Below, piece after piece: positions 6,402 through 51,559 of a stretch of DNA of 64,000 nucleotides. Below the pieces are notes generated by a model. The model searched no databases and was not told the DNA's origin. It saw nothing but the letters and a program-made list of their open reading frames with translations. Source of the stretch: Candidatus Thermofontivivens primus (GTDB lineage: Bacteria > Sysuimicrobiota > Sysuimicrobiia > Sysuimicrobiales > Thermofontiviventaceae). A program made the position numbers and the translations under genes. The stretch spans positions 2,967 through 66,966 of the forward strand of contig JAVKJW010000008.1 in assembly GCA_031458695.1 (NCBI GenBank), given 5' to 3'. Each line of letters starts with the position of its first letter. Positions within the stretch are counted from its first letter, which is position 1.

Positions 6402-7466
6402 ATGGAATTGGTGCTCGGCACAGAACCACTGCGGGAGTACCTTTCTTTCGAACTCACCGCAGCAGCGCATAAGCTTGTCAAGGAGATCATGCTGGTCAAA
6501 CCCGGGGAAGCGGTAGCCATCACTGCGGATACGAGCAGTGACAGGAGAGTCGTGGAGGCCACGGCAGGAGCAGCTTATGCAGTAGGAGCCACTCCCGTTA
6601 TCCTATGGTACCCTACCCTGCTCGGGAGCGGTGTAGAACCGCCTAGGCCAGTTGCCGGGGCGATCGCAGACTGTGATGTCTGGATCGAGTACGCGGTGGG
6701 GTACACCCTTTATTCCAATGCTTACCGCCGGGCAATGGAGAGAGGCGCCAGGTATATCTGCCTTACGGGGATGGATGCAGAGATGATGGTCCGTACCCTG
6801 GGTCGGGTGGATTACTCGAAGCTCCTCGCCCTGGGGGAGAGACTTCGCGCCCTTGTCGCCGCAGCGCGTACTGTGCACATCACCACGCCAGCAGGGACCG
6901 ACCTCGTAGCCGACAACGGCGGCCGGTACGTGCGCCATTCTGGGAAACTCGCTGACACACCTGGAGAGCCGGTAATGCTCGGGGGCCAAATCTCTTGGTG
7001 TCCCCTTGAAGAGACGATCCACGGTCGCTTGGTGTTTGATGGAGCCATCTGGCCTCCCGCGGACCTTGGGGTCCTGCGTTCGCCGGTGGTCCTCACCGTC
7101 GAGGAAGGGATAATCCGCCGGATTGAGGGAGGAACAGAGGCCCGGATCTTTGAGAGGTGGCTGGCCACCTTCAATGATCCAAACATGTATCGGATCGCAC
7201 ATTACTCCCTGGGGTTCAACCCGGGCGTGACGAAGCCGACGGGACGGATCGTTGAGGATGAACGCACCTTCGGCTGCTTGAACGTCGGGATTGGGACCCA
7301 AGGGCCACAGATGCGAGCAAAAGGATGGAAGGCGGCGGCCCATACCGATGGGATTGCCCTCAATCCCACGATTCTTCTGGACGGGGAGCCATTGGAGGTG
7401 GAGGGAAGATATGTTCACCCCGACGTTGTGGCCGCGTGTAGAGACCTCGGTGTCCCGGGATATTAA
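6402..7466 (+). CDS. M29-family aminopeptidase / NicX-like paralog
   Basis: ATG 6402 is preceded by AAGGAGGG. It is a paralog of the previous gene (VHITTPAGTDLV..., NPGVTKPTGRIVEDERTFGCLNVGIGT). Confidence 0.65.
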   Translation: MELVLGTEPLREYLSFELTAAAHKLVKEIMLVKPGEAVAITADTSSDRRVVEATAGAAYAVGATPVILWYPTLLGSGVEPPRPVAGAIADCDVWIEYAVGYTLYSNAYRRAMERGARYICLTGMDAEMMVRTLGRVDYSKLLALGERLRALVAAARTVHITTPAGTDLVADNGGRYVRHSGKLADTPGEPVMLGGQISWCPLEETIHGRLVFDGAIWPPADLGVLRSPVVLTVEEGIIRRIEGGTEARIFERWLATFNDPNMYRIAHYSLGFNPGVTKPTGRIVEDERTFGCLNVGIGTQGPQMRAKGWKAAAHTDGIALNPTILLDGEPLEVEGRYVHPDVVAACRDLGVPGY

Positions 7467-7470
7467 GACC

Positions 7471-8169
7471 ATGCCGGCGGTCTTGCATGTAATCCCTGTG
7501 CGCGCACGCCCTGGACGGGTTGAACGAGAACGAGAGCGGCTTTCTGCGATGGCTCCTTTCATCCGGGTCCATGTGATCGACCTTCCAGACGGGCCGTTGG
7601 ATCTCGAGTATCTCATAGACGATCACTTGGCCGTTGGGAAGATGCTAGAGATCCTTCCACCGTACATAGCTGAGCATTCGGTGGGGGCAGTGAGCATTGG
7701 TTGTTTTTATGATCCCGGCCTCTGGGAGCTTCGGGAGGTCCTGGATGTCCCTGTTGTAGGCATCGGAGAGGCGAGTTTGATGCTTGCGAGCATTGTTGCC
7801 TCCCGCATCGCGATCCTCGTTGGGGATTGGAAATGGGTCCCTAAGATGGAGCAGAATGTGCGTGCTTTGGGAGTGGCCCACCGGGTGTGCTCATGGCGGT
7901 CCATTGGGAGATCTGTCCAGGAGATGCAAGATGACCCCGAGGGGTGCTACTGGGAGATCAGAAGGGAGGCAGAGGCCAGTAGGGACCAAGACCACGCGGA
8001 AGCTGTGATCTTGGGATGTGGTGCGCTTGGAGGGATGGCCGAGCGCCTCCAGAGGGATATAGGGATGCCTGTCATCGATCCAGTGGCGAGCGGGTTCATG
8101 GTTGCATGCACGCTCGCGTGTATGGGGCTTCGGACCAGCAAGGTATGGGGATACAGGCCGAAGGGCTAA
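7471..8169 (+). CDS. Asp/Glu/hydantoin racemase family protein
   Basis: VGAVSIGCFYDPGLWELREVLDVPVVGIGEASLMLASIVASRIAILVG is typical of the PF01177-like fold. Start taken at ATG 7471, after the upstream gene. Confidence 0.7.
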   Translation: MPAVLHVIPVRARPGRVERERERLSAMAPFIRVHVIDLPDGPLDLEYLIDDHLAVGKMLEILPPYIAEHSVGAVSIGCFYDPGLWELREVLDVPVVGIGEASLMLASIVASRIAILVGDWKWVPKMEQNVRALGVAHRVCSWRSIGRSVQEMQDDPEGCYWEIRREAEASRDQDHAEAVILGCGALGGMAERLQRDIGMPVIDPVASGFMVACTLACMGLRTSKVWGYRPKG

Positions 8170-8177
8170 AGCTTACA

Positions 8178-9272
8178 ATGGACCACATCGAGCCTCTGGT
8201 TGTGGGCGGTTCCCTCCTTGGGGGCGGAGGAGGCGGGGATCCGCAAGATGGACGGCAGTTGGCCCGAAAGGCCTTAGAGCTTGGCGATCCCTACCTCGTC
8301 CCCATTGAGACCCTTCGTCCGGACGCTGTTGTCGTGACTGTTGCTCTTGTCGGAGCTCCTTCTGCACCTGAGCGCTCTCTCAACTTGGAGGATCTGCCCA
8401 AGGCGGTAGAACTGATTCAGGAGACCTTCGGGGCCCAGGTGCAGGCCATTATGACAAACGAGAATGGAGGCTTTGCATCGGTAAATGGGTGGATCCAGTC
8501 AGCGGTTCTGGGCCTTCCCATCGTGGATGCACCATGCAATGGGCGCGCGCATCCTACCGCCCTCATGGGTGCCATGGGCCTTCATCTGGTTCCAGGATAC
8601 CGGTCCTTGCAGGTTGCCCTCGGAGGAACTGGCACGCGCCGCGTAGAGGTATGCGTCTCCGGTTCACTGGAGGGAGCCTCTGCCATTGTCCGGCAGGCTG
8701 CTGTCCAGGCGGGGGGACTTGTTGCGGTAGCACGGAACCCGGTTACGGCGAATTACGTCGCGCAACATGGCGCGCCTGGAGCCCTCACAATGGCTCTGCG
8801 AATAGGAGAGGCGGTGCTGCGGACTCTTCCGCATCGCCAAGCGACATGGGAAGCAGCAGCCGAAGCTGTTGGCGGGAGGATCGTGGATGTAGGGAGAGTT
8901 CTTCGCGTTCACATGGAGACGGTCGGGGGGTTTGATCGCGGGGCCATCTTCGTTGAGGGTGGTAGAATCTATGAACTTACCGTGTGGAATGAGTACATGA
9001 CGTTGGAGGTGGAAGGGCAACGTTTGGCTACGTTTCCGGATTTGATTGCAACGCTTGGAGAGAACGGTTTGCCCCTGACGTCGGCAGAGATCCGGGAGGG
9101 AGTCACCGTTGCCCTTCTTGCCGCTCCCAAGGAGAATCTCATTCTTGGGGCAGGGATGCGGGACCCGCAGCTATTCCGCATAGTCGAGCAGAATATAGGT
9201 AAGGAGCTTATCCGGTACATCTTCGGCGAGGTGGAAAAGAATGGCAATGAAACAGACAATCGAAGCCTATGA
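8178..9272 (+). CDS. DUF917-family protein
   Basis: MDHIEPLVVGGSLLGGGGGGDPQDGRQLARKALE... has the Gly-rich N-terminus and length (~365 aa) typical of DUF917. ATG at 8178 lies just after the racemase stop. Confidence 0.65.
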   Translation: MDHIEPLVVGGSLLGGGGGGDPQDGRQLARKALELGDPYLVPIETLRPDAVVVTVALVGAPSAPERSLNLEDLPKAVELIQETFGAQVQAIMTNENGGFASVNGWIQSAVLGLPIVDAPCNGRAHPTALMGAMGLHLVPGYRSLQVALGGTGTRRVEVCVSGSLEGASAIVRQAAVQAGGLVAVARNPVTANYVAQHGAPGALTMALRIGEAVLRTLPHRQATWEAAAEAVGGRIVDVGRVLRVHMETVGGFDRGAIFVEGGRIYELTVWNEYMTLEVEGQRLATFPDLIATLGENGLPLTSAEIREGVTVALLAAPKENLILGAGMRDPQLFRIVEQNIGKELIRYIFGEVEKNGNETDNRSL

Positions 9273-30562: not shown

Positions 30563-30793
30563 ATGCAATGGGTGCGCAGGATCGCTCAGGAGCTAGGAGC
30601 AATGGGTGGCGCGTTCGCACGGATCCCGGAGTACACAGAGACGGCGGAGCGTCTGTACCTCCTGCTCCGCAACCGCACCGCGATCTCTCGGGACGGTTCG
30701 ATCGTCTCTCCCCTTCTGGGAGCACATAGGCAAACGCCAGACGAGACTGGCTTCGAGGTGTTCCCCATCCCCTCCCTTTCCCGATCGCGCTGA
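30563..30793 (+). CDS. hypothetical 76-aa protein (may instead be leader RNA of thiW)
   Basis: ATG preceded by AGGAGGGTGGAGGTGGAG. No homology recognised. Confidence 0.25.
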   Translation: MQWVRRIAQELGAMGGAFARIPEYTETAERLYLLLRNRTAISRDGSIVSPLLGAHRQTPDETGFEVFPIPSLSRSR

Positions 30794-30929
30794 TTCTTCA
30801 CCAACGCCTCAGGGAAACCTGGGAAGCACCCTGCGTGCAGGAAGTCTTCCCTGCCACACAGAAGAACACGAGGGAACCTTGTTCCCTCAAGAACGGGAGC
30901 GTACACAGCACTCGCGCCATGAGGTGACC

Positions 30930-31436
30930 ATGACACCGGTTCGAAGACTCGTTCTGTCAGCGTTGTTTGCAGCAGTGCCGGTGATCCTTTCGTTCGTGCC
31001 TGGTTCGATCCCGGTAGCCGGGGCGAAGTTGCTGCCCTGGCAGCACATGACGAATGTCATCGCAGGGGTTGTAGTAGGTCCGTGGTATGCGGCGCTGGCG
31101 GCGACGGCCGCGGCAATTCTCCGGAATGTGTTGGGGGTAGGGACGCTGCTCGCCTTTCCTGGAGGGATCCCCGGGGCAATTGTCGTTGGGCTGGCCTACC
31201 GGATCTGGCGGAGTGAATGGGTCGGACTCCTGGAGCCCGTTGGGACCGGCCCCATTGGGGCAACGGTTGGATCGCTCTTGGTCGCCCCGGCGCTCATGGG
31301 TACGGCGATCCCGCTGGGGACCCTCCTTCCTCTCTTCCTGGCCAGCAGCGTCCCCGGCTCGCTCTTCGGCGTGGTGGTCCTGAAGGCATTGGCCCGCCTT
31401 GGTTTCAGTCCTGCTCGCCTCCCTGGAGGGTCCTGA
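30930..31436 (+). CDS. thiW: ThiW-type membrane protein (ECF S-component-like thiazole transporter)
   Basis: ~168-aa multi-TM protein directly upstream of thiM, as is typical of thiW. ATG 30930 follows GAGGTGA. Confidence 0.65.
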   Translation: MTPVRRLVLSALFAAVPVILSFVPGSIPVAGAKLLPWQHMTNVIAGVVVGPWYAALAATAAAILRNVLGVGTLLAFPGGIPGAIVVGLAYRIWRSEWVGLLEPVGTGPIGATVGSLLVAPALMGTAIPLGTLLPLFLASSVPGSLFGVVVLKALARLGFSPARLPGGS

Positions 31437-31441
31437 AGGAC

Positions 31442-32278
31442 ATGCTCTTGGCAGCCCAGGCTGGTAGCCTCCTTACGCGTATCCGCGAAACTCGCCCTTT
31501 GGTCCACCACCTTACGAACTTCGTCGCGATGAATGACGTAGCGAACGTCACCCTTGCCACTGGTGCGCTCCCGATCATGGCCCATGCTCCCGAGGAGATG
31601 GAAGAGGTCGTTTCTGCTGCCTCCGTCCTTGTACTCAACCTAGGCACATGGACGCAGGAGAGATGGGACGTGATGCTTCTTGCGGCACGCATCGCCAACA
31701 GGCGTGGGATCCCGGTTGTCCTGGATCCCGTGGGCGCGGGGGCCTCTCGAGTTCGTACGGAGAGTGCACTCAAGCTCCTCCGCGAGAAGCGTGTCACCGT
31801 GGTAAGAGGCAATCGGGGAGAGATCGCCTACCTCACGGGGGCGCTCGCGAGCGTCAGGGGGGTGGAGTCCCTGGGGTCGGACGTCCCTCCCCAGGATTTG
31901 GCCCAAACCCTGGCCCGGGAACATGGGTGCATTGTTGCGGTTACGGGCCCGCGCGACTGGATCAGCGATGGGAAACGCCTCCTCGCCGTGGACAACGGGC
32001 ACCCCCTCCTCCAGAGAATCACCGGTTCCGGGTGTATGGCCACGGCGGCCATCGGCTGTTTTCTCGCTGTCCCCGGAGATCCTCTCATCGGCACCGCCGC
32101 AGCCCTGGCCTATTTCGGGTACGCTGCCGAGCTGGCAGCGAGGGATTCCAAAGGGCCAGGGAGTTTCCGGGTATCTCTGCTTGACCACCTTGCCTTGCTC
32201 GATGCAGCTTCTCTGGAGGCAGGGGCGCGGATCCTGGAGGATTTCGATCCTGGTGGAGGGCCTCAGGGATCCGGGTGA
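31442..32278 (+). CDS. thiM: hydroxyethylthiazole kinase
   Basis: HHLTNFVAMNDVANVTLATGALPIMAHAPEE...VDPVGAGAS...ITGSGCMATAAIGCF is a ThiM-like sequence. Confidence 0.85.
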   Translation: MLLAAQAGSLLTRIRETRPLVHHLTNFVAMNDVANVTLATGALPIMAHAPEEMEEVVSAASVLVLNLGTWTQERWDVMLLAARIANRRGIPVVLDPVGAGASRVRTESALKLLREKRVTVVRGNRGEIAYLTGALASVRGVESLGSDVPPQDLAQTLAREHGCIVAVTGPRDWISDGKRLLAVDNGHPLLQRITGSGCMATAAIGCFLAVPGDPLIGTAAALAYFGYAAELAARDSKGPGSFRVSLLDHLALLDAASLEAGARILEDFDPGGGPQGSG

Positions 32279-34458
32279 GGAAAGCCCGCGAGGACGCCGA
32301 AGGGGGAGAGCAGCGTCTTCGCTGCTTCCAGGACGAGCTCGCTGTATTTCTGCACATCGTAGCTCCAGCCGTCCTGCAGGAGAGCCCACGGCTTGGCCCG
32401 CTCCTCGGGAATCCTGCTGCGGAAGTCGGTGATGACGTACTGTACGGCCTCTCCAGGGTGAAGCCGGACCCCGCGGCGGGCGAGCTGGCGGGCAGCGATG
32501 GCGAGGAGGGTTTCGTGGGTGTAGGACTCCGGGGGTTTGGAGAGCACCTGTTGGATGACGAGGTCCCTCAGCGTGACGTCGCCGTCTCGCAGCCGTGCCA
32601 AGAAGGTTTCCACCACAGCGACCACTTCAGGGAGCCGCTCTTGGAGTTCGTGAAGGGTGCTGGCGGAGGCCAGGACCTCCACCATGCGCTGTTGCGCCTC
32701 CCGCACAATGGGGGGGAGGTCCGAACGCCGGAGCTCAATCCCCCGCACTTTTACAGTCCCGTCCTCGAAGACGCCCACGAAGCGGTTAGGGACCCCCAGG
32801 CGACGACGGATCCTGGACGGGATGAAAGCGATCCAGCGATAACGACCCTCTAGGAGGATGGGAATCCCTGTGGCCTCTGTGATCTCCTGAACCAACGCCT
32901 CCACCTCCTCTGGGCAGCTGCCAGCCTTATGGATCCAGAGGGAATCCACGATGGCATGGAGGAGGCGGAATCCCCGTGACTCGGCGAGTTCTTTCGCCCG
33001 CAGCAACAGCTCCCGGCTGTAGGCAGTAACGGCTTCGTGCGCCTCGATCCTTCCGAACCGGGCGTTCCGGTATCCGAGGTAACCGAAGCACGTCACAAGA
33101 CACCACTTCAGGGCGTTCTGGCGGTGCTCGTAGACTATCCGCTCCTCCCCTGGGGTCTGCCGCATGAGGTGCTTGTAGGCAAGACGTTTCTCAATCAGCG
33201 GCGCGAGCACCTGGGGGATCAATCCCTTCCTCCTCCGGCACACAGAGTACCCAATCTCCGGAACGCGGTGGTCTGGGCAACACGCGCATCCCAGCGTCTC
33301 GGGGGAGATGTTGAACCGCGCCATGATCATGGGGTACATCGAGGCAAAATCCAGCTCAAACACGTCCTCGTAGACGCCGATCGGAGGAAGGTAAACGAGC
33401 CCCCCTTTGTCCGTACGGAGGAGTTCGAGGGCCGACTTGAACTCCTCGGCCTGGCGTTTCCGCCAGGGGATGAGGATCCCCTGGCGGACCGCCGTGTCCA
33501 GCTGCATGGAGGTGATTGCCGTCCCTGTGGTGGTCCGCGCGAGGCGTTGTACTGGGATCTTTGCTAGGCGAGCGACCTCCACCAACCCTTCGAGGCCGCT
33601 CTCCCCCATCAGGAAAGAGTTCACAGTATCGACGTGCAACCGCCCTCTGAAGAGTTGGGCTCCTGCACGATAGACCCACCGGCCGTACGTGTAAAAAGAG
33701 TACCCTCGCCGAGCTAAGGTCGTCCGCTCGCGGTTGAATGGAAGGGGAATCCCAGTCATCCGGCTGAGGCGCTCCAGCCGGGGGATGAGGAAGGAATCCC
33801 CCCACTCCGTCAGGATGATGTCGGGGTCGTACCGGGTGAACAGCGAGCGCAGGCTCTCCAGGAGATCTACGGGCCCGTCCCCATCGAGAACGATGGTCTG
33901 CCCCTCTATCGTTGCCTCCAGGAAACTCCTCCGGCCGTGGGGGGCGATGATCGGGTCTCCCTCCAGCCGGAGGTGAATCATGGTGAGGGGCGGAAGGTGG
34001 TAGGAGAGATCCCAGGGGGAGTCCTCCAGTGCAATGGCTTGGACGGTTCCCTGTTCGTGCTCGATGGCGCAGCGGGCCAAGGGGAAGAGGCCGGACTCGT
34101 AAAAGTAGAGCTGCTCCAGAGGGATGTCCACGTTGAATAGCTCTATCCCTGGGATGTTTGCAACCAAGCGCACCATGGAAGGGAAGTGCGCAGGCGAAGT
34201 TGTCAGCTCGATCACAGGCCGCTCCCTTCCACTGAAGAAGTCGACCCTGCTGGTCGTGCGCAAAGTCACGGGGGCGCGGCATCGCTGGAGAACGGCCTCC
34301 ACCTGGCGGCGTACCCTTGGAGGACCATCGGCATAGCAACGGAGGGAGACAGGGTGGGTGAGGCGGAGGCGGCGGCCTTGCCCGTCTATGAGCCAGAGGA
34401 CCATCCCTCTCTCCCCAGGGTAGGCGTCAAGGATCCACGCGGTGATCTGCTCGCCCAC
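32263..34458 (-). CDS. family-B DNA polymerase (Pol II-like) with degenerate exonuclease motifs
   Basis: Motif A LDFASMYPMIM and motif B KWCLVTCFGYLG are present, and motif C is reduced to AIVDS. Exo I reads HLRLEG (vs SIDIET) and exo II reads WGDSFLIPRL (vs QFDLRML). Start is uncertain: GTG 34458 just before the conserved ITAWILDAY, or ATG 34566/34611. Confidence 0.8.
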   Translation of the reverse strand: MGEQITAWILDAYPGERGMVLWLIDGQGRRLRLTHPVSLRCYADGPPRVRRQVEAVLQRCRAPVTLRTTSRVDFFSGRERPVIELTTSPAHFPSMVRLVANIPGIELFNVDIPLEQLYFYESGLFPLARCAIEHEQGTVQAIALEDSPWDLSYHLPPLTMIHLRLEGDPIIAPHGRRSFLEATIEGQTIVLDGDGPVDLLESLRSLFTRYDPDIILTEWGDSFLIPRLERLSRMTGIPLPFNRERTTLARRGYSFYTYGRWVYRAGAQLFRGRLHVDTVNSFLMGESGLEGLVEVARLAKIPVQRLARTTTGTAITSMQLDTAVRQGILIPWRKRQAEEFKSALELLRTDKGGLVYLPPIGVYEDVFELDFASMYPMIMARFNISPETLGCACCPDHRVPEIGYSVCRRRKGLIPQVLAPLIEKRLAYKHLMRQTPGEERIVYEHRQNALKWCLVTCFGYLGYRNARFGRIEAHEAVTAYSRELLLRAKELAESRGFRLLHAIVDSLWIHKAGSCPEEVEALVQEITEATGIPILLEGRYRWIAFIPSRIRRRLGVPNRFVGVFEDGTVKVRGIELRRSDLPPIVREAQQRMVEVLASASTLHELQERLPEVVAVVETFLARLRDGDVTLRDLVIQQVLSKPPESYTHETLLAIAARQLARRGVRLHPGEAVQYVITDFRSRIPEERAKPWALLQDGWSYDVQKYSELVLEAAKTLLSPFGVLAGFPHPDP

Positions 34459-34714
34459 GATTCCTCTCCAGGGAATCCAGCCTGCGTTCAAGAGATCGCA
34501 CCCGCTTGAGTGTCTCGAGGAGCATGCAAACCAGCATCGTTTCGAAGGGAACTGGGTGGCTGGCATAGGCGGCTTCGGCAGAATGGTGCCGTGCTGCTTC
34601 AAACAGCTCATCCAGGACCTCCTGGTCCTCTCGCCGCAACGCCCTCCGGAACGGCATCCAGCGCTCGATCTCTTCCAGAACGAGGTTGGTCATGGTACGC
34701 AGCGTCCGTCCCAT
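34427..34714 (-). CDS. hypothetical 95-aa protein, middle gene of the SOS operon
   Basis: Sits between the ImuA-like gene (6-nt gap) and polB (overlap). Predicted helical, no family recognised. Confidence 0.55.
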   Translation of the reverse strand: MGRTLRTMTNLVLEEIERWMPFRRALRREDQEVLDELFEAARHHSAEAAYASHPVPFETMLVCMLLETLKRVRSLERRLDSLERNRGRADHRVDP

Positions 34715-34720
34715 CGCACC

Positions 34721-35368
34721 TCACTCCTTTCCTCTTTGGGAGTACCCCCAGACGAATCTCTTCGAGATCCTGCTGGCGTGGTTAGGATGTTCCTGGAGCA
34801 CGAGGTAAGAACCATCGCCTGTTGCCTGAATACGCAAAATCCAAGAGGCCAGGCGGCGCAGCAATGGGAACAAGTGGGCCTCCCGGGATCGTTCCACGGG
34901 GCTCGGGCAGGCGACGAGAAGATGGCATCGGCGTTTGACCAGGCGCTGGAAAGTCCAGAGAATCCCTCTGAAGATACGATGTGCCTCCGGGTTGGGCACA
35001 GCTTCGTCCCCGAACAGGTCCAGGAGGCCGAGGAGGAGGACTGGGCTGGCCTCCCCACAGAGGGCAGGGAGGCGTTTGGTGATTAGGACCTCAAGCTGGT
35101 GTACGGTGAAAGCCCTGGCGATGCTGACGCGAGCCAACCATCGTTCAGGGATCTCCCCCGCTGCCCTCGCCGCGTCGGAGATGATGTAGGGATCAAAGGC
35201 GTTCCCAGCGTCCACGACGATCAGGTGAGAAGCTCGTCCTTGTCCTGGTTGCCTTCTCTCGAGGAATGTGCGGGCGGTAGTCCACATGGCAACGGTCATG
35301 CATGTGTGGTCCCCGCAAAAGAGGACCAGTTCACCATAGCTGAGAGGAAAAAGGTCTAGAAAGTTCAT
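34721..35368 (-). CDS. RecA-fold protein with degenerate P-loop, ImuA/SulA-like (SOS cell-division/mutagenesis protein family)
   Basis: LSYGELVLFCGDHTCMTVAMW...LIVVDAGNAFDP has RecA/ImuA-like topology, but Walker A lacks Lys. First gene downstream of the LexA-box promoter. Confidence 0.55.
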   Translation of the reverse strand: MNFLDLFPLSYGELVLFCGDHTCMTVAMWTTARTFLERRQPGQGRASHLIVVDAGNAFDPYIISDAARAAGEIPERWLARVSIARAFTVHQLEVLITKRLPALCGEASPVLLLGLLDLFGDEAVPNPEAHRIFRGILWTFQRLVKRRCHLLVACPSPVERSREAHLFPLLRRLASWILRIQATGDGSYLVLQEHPNHASRISKRFVWGYSQRGKE

Positions 35369-35389
35369 AGGCGCACCCGGTCTGAGGTT

Positions 35390-35418
35390 ATTATATCGAA
35401 CTTATGTTCGCATGTCAA
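35390..35418 (-). promoter_or_regulatory. sigma-A promoter TTGACA-N17-TATAAT (minus strand) with embedded LexA box
   Basis: On the minus strand, TTGACA is at 35418-35413 and TATAAT at 35395-35390, with exactly 17 nt between. The -10 ends ~21 nt upstream of the ATG at 35368. Confidence 0.75.
35397..35410. promoter_or_regulatory. LexA operator (Cheo box) CGAACTTATGTTCG
   Basis: Perfect match to the Gram-positive SOS box consensus CGAAC-N4-GTTCG. It lies inside the spacer of the promoter of the minus-strand operon. Confidence 0.8.
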
Positions 35419-35505
35419 CTTCCCTCATGGAGTGAGGAAGAACCTGGCGTATTGACGTCCTCTGGTGCGCGGTGCTACCAATAAACACGGGTGCGATAGG
35501 GGGAA

Positions 35506-36705
35506 ATGGCGCTTCCACGCCTCCGGCGTTTTGACGCATATCCTGTTCGCCTTAACGGCCGGGACTTCATCTGCCTGCGCGACCTGGAAGGTGTGCTCGA
35601 TGAGCCAGTCCTCCTCTCGCCGCAGGCGTTTCTGGTTGCTACCCTCCTGGACGGGCAACGAGACGTGCTCGATATCCAGGCGGAGTATGCCCGGCGGTCG
35701 GGCGGAGATCTCCTCCTTTCCTGGGATCTCCAGAGGATCGTGGAAGAGCTGGACCGATACGGCCTTCTAGAAACTCAGACGTTCACAGAGCGCCGCAAGC
35801 AGTTGGAGGAGTCCTTCCGGAACGCACCGATCCGGTCTCCCTATCACGCTGGCAAGGCCTACCCATCGGATCCCGACGTCCTGCGCACACAGCTCTCAGG
35901 GTATTTCGCAACGGTAGATCCCCGGGAGCTCAACGGTCTCAAGCCGCGCGGAATTATCGTGCCGCACATCGACTTCGCCCGCGGCGGTTGGTGCTATGCT
36001 TGGGGATACGCTACCCTTCATCCGTATCAGCGGAGGACATACATTGTGCTTGGGGTTGCCCATTCCGGGCCACCCGTGCCGTTCGTGCTCACGAGGAAAC
36101 CTTTCCAGACGCCCCTCGGCGTGATGGAGGTGGATCAGAACCTCGCGGATGCACTCCAGAGGGAAGCGGGCGACCTTACAGAGTACGAGGCGATCCACCG
36201 CACCGAACACTCGGTGGAGTTCCAAGTTCTCTTCCTTCAGCACATGGCGGGAAGCCGTCCCATACGTATCCTTCCGCTCCTGTGTGCAAACCTAGAAGAA
36301 TGGGCAAAGGAAGGTTCCCCACGCGACGTGGAGGCGATCGAGCGGGTGATCCAGGTGCTCCGTGACCTAGTGCTGCAGGCAAGGGGAGAAATTGGGGTGA
36401 TCGCGAGCGTGGACTTCAGCCATGTCGGCCCGCGCTTTGGAGACGTCGAACCTGTCGGGCCCGCTCTTGCTTCGCGGACCTCGCTGGATGATCGGGCGGC
36501 GCTAGAGGCCATTGTCCGCGGCGATGCTGAGGAGTTCTGGAGGACGATCACTAGGAGAGGGAACCCAAACCGCATCGACGCCCTCTCTGCTGTGTACGTG
36601 GCGTTGCGACTTCTCGAACCTGTGCAAGGGAAGCTCCTCCGCTATGGCCAGGCTCAGGATCCCGCGGGCGGCCTTGTCTCCTTCGCGAGCCTCGCCCTCC
36701 TGTAG
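35506..36705 (+). CDS. MEMO1-family (AmmeMemoRadiSam system protein B-like) enzyme with N-terminal PqqD-like RRE domain
   Basis: C-terminal 290 aa carry GIIVPHIDFARGGWCYAWGY...SVDFSHVGPRFGD. The N-terminal ~105 aa (LSPQAFLVATLLDGQRDVLDIQAEYARRSG..LSWDLQRIVEELDRYGLLE) follow the PqqD/RRE pattern. ATG follows GATAGGGGGAA. Confidence 0.75.
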   Translation: MALPRLRRFDAYPVRLNGRDFICLRDLEGVLDEPVLLSPQAFLVATLLDGQRDVLDIQAEYARRSGGDLLLSWDLQRIVEELDRYGLLETQTFTERRKQLEESFRNAPIRSPYHAGKAYPSDPDVLRTQLSGYFATVDPRELNGLKPRGIIVPHIDFARGGWCYAWGYATLHPYQRRTYIVLGVAHSGPPVPFVLTRKPFQTPLGVMEVDQNLADALQREAGDLTEYEAIHRTEHSVEFQVLFLQHMAGSRPIRILPLLCANLEEWAKEGSPRDVEAIERVIQVLRDLVLQARGEIGVIASVDFSHVGPRFGDVEPVGPALASRTSLDDRAALEAIVRGDAEEFWRTITRRGNPNRIDALSAVYVALRLLEPVQGKLLRYGQAQDPAGGLVSFASLALL

Positions 36706-49888: not shown

Positions 49889-51559
49889 TTAGGATCTCGT
49901 GTAGAGACGCCGGAGGGCGCATGCTGCAGTGAACTCCGCGAGGGCTCCAAACAACCCTTCCGCCTGCGCTTCCTTCTCCTCCGGCGGTAAGGCCAGGTGC
50001 GATCTGACCCGTTCATCCATTTCCTGGAGGGCTTCTCGATCTGCGTACGGGGCGAGGTGCAAGAACAGCTGGTGGTGGGCTTCCCGGCGTTCCATGACCT
50101 CAAGGCCATCCAAAATCTGCCTGTGCGGGGTTCCTTCCCATATGGGGAGGATCATAGCCTCCCGGAGCAGTCGCTCTACAGAATACTCGGCTAACACGCC
50201 AGCACCACCATGGACTTCCATCGTCCATTTGGCTGTCTGGACTGCTACCTCTGCTGTCCAGTATTTCGCCAGGTGTGCGACGAGGCGGAAGAGGTGGTAC
50301 CGGCCAGAGTATCTTGGGGTCTCCAGCCAAACTTCGTCGAGGAGCTGCACAGCTTCCCAGGCAAGGGCGAATGCGAGCTGGAGGGTCCTCACACGCTCCT
50401 CAAACTGCTGGTGAAGCAGGGGGTGGTCAAGGATGCGCTTGCCGAAGGCGACACGTCCTTCCGAGAAGGCAAGTGCTTCCTGGATTGCCCGCTGGGCCAG
50501 AGCGACGCTTCCTATACTGTTGGCGACGCGGGAGATGTTAAGGACCTCCAGAATGAGGTAGATCCCCCATTCGGGTTTGCCAAGGAGATAGGCTACACTG
50601 TCGAGAAGCTCTACCTCCCCGGTAGGAACAGAGCGTGTGCCGATTTTATCCTTCAGGCGGCGGATGAAGTAGTTGAGCCGCCCATCCTCCAGCCTCCTTG
50701 GGAGGAGGAAGAGCGCCAGGCCGCGAACTCCGGGCGGTGCCCCCTCTGGCCTGGCTGCCACCACCGCAACATCCGCTCCCACATTGCTGGCGAAGTACTT
50801 CTCTCCCCTCAGGAGCCAGTAGTCTCCCTGGGGTCGGGCCACTGTCTCCACGCTAGCTCCAAGGTCCGAACCTCCCTTTACCTCTGTCATCCAGGTTGCA
50901 CCCTGCCAAGCGTTGCCATCCCTGCGGAGCAGAGGTGGGAGGTACTTTGTCTTCACCGCCTCGCTTCCATACTTCCAAAGGGGGACACCCGTTGAGAGGG
51001 TGACGGTATAAGGACAGTAGACCCCTGGGTCATAAAAAGAGGTGACGTACCCAAAGAGATAAAAAGGGAGGAGGGTCCTTTCCTCAAAGACCCGCCAGAC
51101 CGCCCCTGCCTTATAGCCCGTCTGAAGCATCTCCCAGTACTCTGGAGGGTACTGGATCTCATCCACACGATTGCCAAAACGGTCGAACATTCGGAGCCAA
51201 GGAGTACCTAAGCGATCAATAAAAGAGGAAATCGCTTTCCCCCTCTCCTCCCACCATCGTTCGTACTCTTCCAGTTGGGCGCGGAGGGCAAAGTCTCTGA
51301 AGGTTTCCTGGAGGAAGCGCGTGGGTGACCGGACAAAATTCCAGCTCACGTTGGACCCTCCTGGTTCCGATTCAGTTTCTAAGGGGAAGTATTCTCCTTG
51401 TCTTGAGGTGGACCTTTCGGAGGACAGGGATGGAGCTCCAACGAAATCTTTTGACAGATGGTGTGTGATGCGGGCTGTCTGGCGAATATGCAATTCGTGG
51501 CTCGCTCGTTCATGCGCTTGCCTGAGAGAGGAATCGGGTACAAGCCCGATAGCGTCCAA
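49889..51559 (-). CDS. acyl-CoA dehydrogenase family protein (AidB-like, ~556 aa)
   Basis: ACAD middle and C-terminal domains (EVKGGSDLGASVETVARPQGDYWLLRGEKYFASN). TTG start as drawn, so the true start is uncertain. Confidence 0.7.
   Translation of the reverse strand: MDAIGLVPDSSLRQAHERASHELHIRQTARITHHLSKDFVGAPSLSSERSTSRQGEYFPLETESEPGGSNVSWNFVRSPTRFLQETFRDFALRAQLEEYERWWEERGKAISSFIDRLGTPWLRMFDRFGNRVDEIQYPPEYWEMLQTGYKAGAVWRVFEERTLLPFYLFGYVTSFYDPGVYCPYTVTLSTGVPLWKYGSEAVKTKYLPPLLRRDGNAWQGATWMTEVKGGSDLGASVETVARPQGDYWLLRGEKYFASNVGADVAVVAARPEGAPPGVRGLALFLLPRRLEDGRLNYFIRRLKDKIGTRSVPTGEVELLDSVAYLLGKPEWGIYLILEVLNISRVANSIGSVALAQRAIQEALAFSEGRVAFGKRILDHPLLHQQFEERVRTLQLAFALAWEAVQLLDEVWLETPRYSGRYHLFRLVAHLAKYWTAEVAVQTAKWTMEVHGGAGVLAEYSVERLLREAMILPIWEGTPHRQILDGLEVMERREAHHQLFLHLAPYADREALQEMDERVRSHLALPPEEKEAQAEGLFGALAEFTAACALRRLYTRS

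Follow-up and report, generated by a model that had tools for sequence, protein, structure and literature searches.

A putative LexA-repressed promoter of the iRadA-PPB2-PolB2 translesion operon in an uncultured bacterium

What is controlled by a bacterial promoter that matches the consensus in both hexamers and holds a palindrome between them, and which protein would control it? The question is raised by a 64,000-nt stretch of DNA from Candidatus Thermofontivivens primus (assembly GCA_031458695.1, contig JAVKJW010000008.1, positions 2,967 to 66,966; hereafter the window), in which an initial annotation placed an SOS promoter on the minus strand at 35390-35418 and predicted that LexA bound there would occlude RNA polymerase. 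Our analysis indicates that this element is very probably a LexA-repressed (SOS) promoter and that it serves a translesion operon, iRadA-PPB2-PolB2, the predicted bacterial PolB2 "mutasome". The identity of these genes is an addition to the initial annotation, which left the minus-strand genes behind the promoter unnamed.

The promoter can be read directly on the minus strand, where the -35 hexamer TTGACA (35413-35418) and the -10 hexamer TATAAT (35390-35395) are separated by the 17-nt spacer TGCGAACATAAGTTCGA (35412-35396); the full composite element (35418-35390) is agTTGACAtgCGAACATAAGTTCGaTATAATaacc. In a consensus promoter scan it obtained a score of 12/12 at this spacing, the sole such site between 31 and 39 kb, so that the sequence reading and the scan both bear out the perfect sigma-A (sigma-70) consensus described by the initial annotation. 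The box noticed at the same time, CGAAC-N4-GTTCG, was also found where it had been placed, wholly within the spacer: the 14-bp palindrome, of the Cheo type and legible on both strands, occupies 35397-35410 (CGAACTTATGTTCG on the plus strand, CGAACATAAGTTCG on the minus strand), with no base outside the spacer. We regard it as a putative LexA operator. The motif is the one that B. subtilis LexA recognises. GAAC-N4-GTTC is the established LexA motif in Firmicutes and Actinobacteria (PMC3323433).

Both elements are rare in the window. The pattern TTGACA-N17-TATAAT with at most one mismatch occurs once, against a mean of 0.02 in shuffled sequences, and the perfect box occurs once, against 0.06 in shuffles; its 8-base core, GAAC-N4-GTTC, has a single occurrence, again at this box. 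Since the G+C content of the window is about 60%, an A+T-rich consensus promoter is less likely to be accidental. When one mismatch is allowed, the box is found three times where 1.86 are expected, which is chance level, and the one-mismatch boxes at 2972 and 21213 were dropped for this reason. Consequently, the palindrome owes its significance to the exactness of the match, to where it lies within the promoter and, most of all, to being conserved in related loci; judged alone, the single site is suggestive of an operator and falls short of decisive evidence.

From the promoter geometry, transcription would start at about 35383, 7 nt past the -10 hexamer, giving a predicted 5' leader of about 15 nt (35369-35383, minus strand) in front of the iRadA ATG at 35368, which lies 22 bases beyond the -10. 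At the Shine-Dalgarno position this leader carries a weak GGGTG, whereas close relatives carry AGGAGG or GGAGGG. At gathering thresholds, no Rfam family matched the promoter region or any other part of the window, and an RNA element at the promoter region was rejected on this basis.

The relatives of the iRadA protein allowed the box to be followed into other genomes. Only four close relatives were found among 5.8 billion sequences. On the contigs of close and moderately close relatives the three-gene unit is present in all cases, and in all four loci the box lies in the promoter spacer. The promoter reads TTGACT-tgCGAACAAATGTTCGc-TACACT in locus L001, TTGACA-tgCGAACAATTGTTCGc-TATAAT in L003 and cATTGAtgCAAACATATGTTCGg-TATTAT in L004, the last of which is 38% identical and has other flanking genes.

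A wider comparison was made with species-representative genomes, in which a scan with a 12-sequence query alignment yielded 80 loci covering 784 kb. Most of the loci that keep all three genes have them in the order iRadA-PPB2-PolB2. Perfect boxes number 28 in this set; 27 of them fall in the 150 bp upstream of where iRadA is estimated to start, and one in the other 772 kb. A box near iRadA is therefore present at 27 of the 80 loci, where 0.015 would be expected in the upstream windows (Poisson P ~4e-78, shared ancestry ignored). Across 38 sites the arms of the box are invariant and the N4 centre takes 18 different forms, and this combination of invariant arms and variable centre is the signature of a protein-binding palindrome. 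The sole perfect box beyond the 150-bp windows (L038, 6651-6664), in an NC10 metagenome-assembled genome (MAG), lies 206 bp upstream of iRadA; it could be an operator placed at a distance, or it could have arisen by chance.

The box-bearing promoters have two architectures. In class A, which comprises the window and 16 other loci, the spacer filled by the box has TTGACA or TTGATN on one side and TATAAT, TATTAT or TATACT on the other. In class B, to which about 20 loci belong, many of them under the label Armatimonadota, "ANGP1" or Sysuimicrobiota, the promoter has the form TTGACA...TGgTAnAGT and the box follows about 9 nt later, over the predicted start site. The class B elements (L006-L011, L015-L021, L025, L028, L036, L039, L040 and L071) lie about 70 nt upstream of iRadA and have an extended -10 and a spacer with CGAACAG; in L008 and L016 the spacer contains the everted repeat TGTTCG-N4-CGAACA, which may be an additional LexA site of unusual form. 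Two box-bearing loci, L016 and L052, belong to Candidatus Sysuimicrobiota (formerly CSP1-3), and many of the loci labelled "Armatimonadota" or "bacterium" may belong to this phylum too, so that the label given by NCBI to the MAG of the window could be imprecise.

Some of the related loci depart from the plain three-gene arrangement. In L001, a 63%-identical relative, an IS607-like unit with a serine resolvase and TnpB/OrfB_IS605 (6749-8564) is inserted between iRadA and PPB2, and as a result PPB2-PolB2 is separated from the putative LexA-controlled promoter. The PolB2 of L004 (7131-10181) is a 1016-aa protein with an intein, in the domain order DNA_pol_B - Intein_splicing - DNA_pol_B. In L003 (6939-8880) the PolB2 gene is apparently truncated or split, with 448 aa, and is preceded by an opposite-strand ORF (open reading frame). 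Eight loci of NC10/Methylomirabilota (L026, L032, L033, L035, L037, L038, L046 and L049) have an iRadA-PPB2 pair with no PolB2 detected in the fetched locus, and in L033 the genes next after the pair are MmgE/PrpD and ferredoxin-like. In these bacteria either PolB2 lies elsewhere or the pair works with another polymerase.

In the window, the DNA 3' of the promoter holds three tightly packed minus-strand genes, iRadA, PPB2 and PolB2, with a 6-nt gap between the first two and a 32-nt overlap between the last two. iRadA (34721-35368) encodes a 215-aa inactivated protein of the RadA/Rad51 family that consists of the ATPase core only, as assigned from a fold match and family profiles. The window protein has no Pfam match and its similarity to RadA is weak. 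Its structure model, built from an alignment of five sequences, is of moderate confidence (predicted local distance difference test, pLDDT, 70; predicted template modelling score, pTM, 0.72), and in Foldseek this model matched the ATPase cores of RadA, Rad51 and DMC1 (E ~3e-10, TM ~0.7). An exhaustive profile search gave 1,437 relatives, and in a sample of 60 of these, 32 matched NCBIfam RadA models and 26 matched Pfam Rad51. The same sample gave no ImuA match, and an ImuA identity for this RecA-fold protein was rejected. The P-loop of the window protein, GDHTCMT, has lost the Walker A lysine; the protein also lacks the helical domain found at the N-terminus of RadA.

The public annotation of iRadA (P0001, QN198_00605) begins at Met24 and gives 192 aa, the intervening codons spanning 35300-35368 on the minus strand. 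Because the N-terminal strand is conserved among the homologues, with G13, L14 and G19 almost invariant, and the relatives begin at the equivalent of 35368, the 215-aa form is the more probable one, and the deposited coding sequence appears to be short by 23 codons.

PPB2 (34427-34714, minus strand), a helical protein of 95 aa, has its ATG 6 nt past the iRadA stop codon, with AAGGAG in front. It is identical to P0274, which is annotated as PF26485 (DUF8156), a family taken here from precomputed annotations; all 102 homologues carry PF26485, which from its context probably equals arCOG07300. In the model (pLDDT 82) a free N-terminal arm leads into three main helices, the third of which is long, and in the arm the residues MGRT are invariant among homologues.

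PolB2 (32263-34458, minus strand) is an archaeal-type family-B DNA polymerase of 731 aa. It matches PF00136 (1.5e-36) and NF004416 (434 bits, below the model cut-off of 516), and its similarity to archaeal PolB (E 1e-51) far exceeds that to E. coli Pol II (E 1e-11). Motif A is retained (DFASMYP), whereas motif C reads HAIVDS in place of the YGDTDS of Pyrobaculum PolB, the first catalytic Asp being replaced by Ile; the substituted DxD is thus IVD in the window protein and IID in S. islandicus PolB2. In Exo I, the sequence FDIE is aligned with LRLE, with apparent loss of the Asp, in a weak N-terminal alignment (11.9 bits) that was inspected at Exo I. The longest ORF, of 782 aa from 34611, was rejected as the coding sequence: homologues align from its residue 55-56, the orthologue in L001 is called with 731 aa, and the GTG at 34458, which has GGAGAGG in front and creates the overlap with the end of PPB2, fits both. 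The GTG at 34458 is for these reasons most likely the real start.

These features can be compared with what has been published on the operon. Makarova et al. 2014 (PMC4104785) report that the three families are linked in several bacteria and that lexA is sometimes in the same operon. Timinskas et al. 2025 (PMC11791011) describe the polymerase as archaeal in origin, with probably a single entry into bacteria, and the bacterial gene order as solely iRadA-PPB2-PolB2. The first Asp of the DxD motif is stated there to be missing in most PolB2 proteins (IID in S. islandicus), iRadA to have lost the N-terminal domain and the ATPase residues, and PPB2 to be a three-helix protein with a conserved N-terminal arm; a 1:1:3 "mutasome" of PolB2, iRadA and PPB2 is predicted. 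All of these traits that can be checked here are present in the window; loss of the exonuclease site, suggested by the weak alignment mentioned above, is not counted among them. Judged from its sequence, then, the three-gene unit is the bacterial PolB2 mutasome operon iRadA-PPB2-PolB2.

A link between this operon and the SOS response had been proposed earlier from the adjacency of lexA (PMC4104785 and PMC11791011). The word "promoter" is absent from PMC11791011, and the LexA passages of both papers are silent on operator sites. Among our loci, about 20 that have no box of the Gram-positive type have lexA directly upstream of iRadA on the same strand; they come from NC10/Methylomirabilota, Nitrospirota, deltaproteobacteria, Abyssobacteria and others, and the lexA-iRadA-PPB2-PolB2 operons include L012, L029, L030, L044, L050, L063, L064, L072, L075, L077, L078 and L083. 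Several of these lexA-headed loci (e.g., L029, L072, L075, L078 and L083) have a palindrome of their own, in or overlapping an equally strong consensus promoter. In L029 it is TTGACAactGTACATATGTTCAgTATAAT (GTAC-N4-GTTC), and in four deltaproteobacterial loci it is TTGACAaGTATAC-N4-GTATAGTAT (GTATAC-N4-GTATAG). These lineage-specific palindromes before lexA may be candidate LexA motifs of the respective lineages.

The same composite as in the window was also found in front of lexA itself. Metagenome contigs were searched for the exact pattern TTGACA-N2-CGAAC-N4-GTTCG-N1-TATAAT, which occurs on at least 120 contigs, 90 of these with a recognisable downstream ORF; the result concerns these metagenomic contigs and may not describe the host of the window. 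Among the composites listed, lexA is by far the largest downstream class (at least 18 of the 90 with an ORF), with its start 47-56 nt downstream. Other genes behind the composite, among the matches listed, encode Y-family polymerases, a RecA-family protein, a small LysM protein, Tag glycosylase, RecT and a metallophosphoesterase; the small LysM protein is reminiscent of the Bacillus SOS division inhibitor YneA. This exact promoter-operator design thus serves, in uncultured bacteria, an autoregulated lexA as well as genes of the SOS type.

Taking into consideration: (i) the perfect promoter and box, each unique in the window, (ii) the conservation of the box at iRadA, (iii) the operons headed by lexA and (iv) the composite before metagenomic lexA; the evidence supports the proposal of the initial annotation that this is a LexA-repressed SOS promoter with predicted occlusion of RNA polymerase. 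LexA is the presumed box-binding protein, and the PolB2 complex would most likely be switched on in this bacterium only after DNA damage. We envisage that in the undamaged cell the 14-bp palindrome is occupied by a LexA dimer, which would extend over the DNA between the -35 (its 3' edge) and the -10 (its 5' half) and so shut out the RNA polymerase holoenzyme. Upon DNA damage, RecA filaments would trigger self-cleavage of LexA and the operator would be vacated, as expected from established SOS biology, from which the occlusion mechanism is drawn. The freed consensus promoter would then fire strongly and the three translationally coupled genes would be expressed. Their products would be a family-B polymerase that is probably exonuclease-dead, a small helical partner predicted to be trimeric, and a RadA paralogue without ATPase function. 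By analogy with work on archaeal Dpo2 and with published modelling, this complex would act as a translesion "extender" polymerase that carries DNA synthesis past lesions at the cost of mutations. With a perfect operator set in a consensus promoter, repression would in our view be tight and induction strong, as befits a mutagenic enzyme.

Other explanations of the palindrome were considered. It might be the operator of a repressor other than LexA, for instance a lineage-specific helix-turn-helix protein that travels with the PolB2 cassette or was recruited to it, with no tie to RecA-mediated cleavage. Such a private regulator is conceivable, as the cassette moves between phyla and has different surroundings at different loci, and it would agree with our failure to find lexA or recA in the window (tblastn with B. 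subtilis and E. coli LexA and E. coli RecA as queries) or in the 10 kb past its right end, a region of transporters and hydantoinases. However, the box-bearing cassettes that we inspected come without a regulator gene, and where a regulator is part of the operon it is LexA; moreover, the motif equals the LexA consensus given in PMC3323433. The same composite also precedes lexA and classic SOS genes in metagenomes, and we therefore hold a non-LexA repressor to be unlikely. Rex recognises GAA-N4-TTC; the half-sites of the box are spaced as GAA-N6-TTC, and a Rex operator was rejected on this spacing. One could also suppose a strong constitutive promoter whose spacer is palindromic by accident, as the site is the only one in the window and boxes with one mismatch are no commoner than expected at random. 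Promoter and box together would nevertheless be expected by chance far less than 0.01 times, and a box with invariant arms and a variable centre, recurring at orthologous loci far above the expected number, effectively refutes a fortuitous match.

A further possibility, raised by the initial annotation, is that the single LexA site governs both divergent genes, so that the Memo-like gene on the other side (35506-36705, plus strand) is under SOS control as well. Its ATG is indeed at 35506, as annotated, the two genes share an intergenic region of 137 bp, and the Memo-iRadA synteny is kept in the two closest relatives; in addition, supercoiling from strong divergent transcription could affect the Memo promoter. 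The Memo-like gene has, however, a promoter-like element of its own (35452-35481, plus strand), recognised by reading the sequence and falling below the threshold of the consensus promoter scan: TTGACG (35452-35457), an 18-nt spacer and TGc-TACCAA (35473-35481), followed by GGGGG and the ATG. This element is conserved in L001 and L003 with a 17-nt spacer. The box ends 41 bp short of its -35 and would lie at about -78 to -91 relative to the predicted Memo start, a position that the polymerase footprint does not reach. Upstream of iRadA in L004 and L005 lies a peptidase C15 gene in place of Memo, and the box is still found at iRadA, which argues that the box belongs to iRadA; in the 80 genome loci it likewise adjoins iRadA, upstream neighbours being outside that comparison. 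Memo/AmmeMemoRadiSam proteins, furthermore, have no known role in DNA damage. The suggestion that the Memo-like gene is also SOS-influenced is thus not supported, and joint control of both genes seems improbable.

Several points weigh against a LexA-repressed iRadA-PPB2-PolB2 operon in this bacterium. Besides the lack of lexA and recA matches given above, the window holds no second perfect box and so defines no regulon, and the 27 conserved boxes share ancestry and are not phylogenetically independent. To our knowledge, there has been no biochemical study of a bacterial PolB2 complex to date. The presence of LexA in the organism of the window is assumed. In a LexA protein search, only NC10-like matches appeared among the best 120, so that the search does not bear on Armatimonadota, and nothing relevant was found in the literature on Armatimonadetes/Armatimonadota with LexA or SOS. 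In favour of LexA, a PNAS 2025 paper on the phylum CSP1-3 (Sysuimicrobiota, a neighbour of Armatimonadota; PMC11962464) reports LexA and RecA in the NP-7 lineage, and MAGs named ANGP1 NP_1 to NP_8 are among our loci with perfect boxes. The paper describes these genes as gained in one CSP1-3 lineage, and some related lineages may be without LexA.

The closest known counterparts of the window promoter are the Cheo-box SOS promoters of Firmicutes and Actinobacteria (B. subtilis lexA/dinR, recA, uvrBA and yneA), in which the same 14-bp palindrome overlaps a promoter of the sigma-A type. The logic of occlusion, and of release by RecA-stimulated cleavage of LexA, would be shared. The host differs, however, as the window comes from an uncultured MAG labelled "Armatimonadota", and iRadA-PPB2-PolB2 is outside the classical SOS regulon of Bacillus and Mycobacterium. 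With the published bacterial PolB2 operon, the window has in common the three genes, their order, the inactivating substitutions and the predicted role in damage tolerance. There the link to SOS is made by an adjacent lexA, whereas in the window no lexA is adjacent and the link is a cis operator in the promoter.

Known LexA-controlled mutagenesis cassettes show a comparable composition. Like the window operon, imuA-imuB-dnaE2 and umuDC (Pol V) are horizontally spread and bring together an error-prone polymerase, an accessory protein that belongs to the RecA family or binds RecA, and a small partner; the polymerase, however, is of the C or Y family there and of family B here, and the accessory protein here is of the RadA/Rad51 type and not ImuA/RecA. 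Pfam and NCBIfam scans gave no ImuA, ImuB or DnaE2 match, and homologues of ImuB and UmuD are absent from the operon. E. coli polB (dinA, Pol II) also encodes a family-B polymerase under direct LexA control, but it is a distantly related single-subunit enzyme with active proofreading, and its operator is CTGT-N8-ACAG. The Sulfolobus Dpo2 (PolB2) operon encodes three orthologous proteins; according to work cited in PMC11791011, DNA damage induces them and targeted mutagenesis depends on them. The archaeal induction, in contrast, proceeds via Orc1-2 and not via LexA.

The bacterial PolB2 operon thus appears to have been rewired into the SOS network. After its transfer from archaea to bacteria it was probably wired to SOS in two interchangeable ways, with lexA as the first gene or with a LexA operator in a near-consensus promoter. 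If this is true, PolB2 would be widespread as a mutagenic polymerase under LexA control in several phyla that have received little study (Armatimonadota/CSP1-3, Elusimicrobia, Nitrospirota, NC10 and others), and SOS mutagenesis would have a fourth module in addition to Pol V, Pol IV and ImuABC. In itself the element is ordinary, as LexA-repressed promoters and SOS error-prone polymerases are textbook knowledge, and its value lies in the genes controlled. A conserved putative operator at operons without lexA offers independent cis-regulatory evidence for damage induction of the PolB2 complex, and the case would illustrate how a host regulatory network adopts a foreign repair module. The two promoter architectures could be used for predicting SOS regulons in uncultured phyla; together with the operator evidence and the alternative of "lexA in operon or box in promoter", they appear to be a modest addition to PMC4104785 and PMC11791011.

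Elsewhere in the window, the only other gene with a nominal link to DNA damage (49889-51559, minus strand) has no LexA box nearby; it encodes an acyl-CoA dehydrogenase with an AidB N-terminal domain and resembles AidB of the adaptive response. On the other side of the operon lies a ThiW-ThiM thiamine salvage pair (30606-32278), for which Rfam detected no thiamine pyrophosphate (TPP) riboswitch in the window. Its thiM-like hydroxyethylthiazole kinase gene, on the plus strand, converges with PolB2; no terminator-like hairpin was found between the two 3' ends, and the genes overlap by 16 bp (32263-32278).

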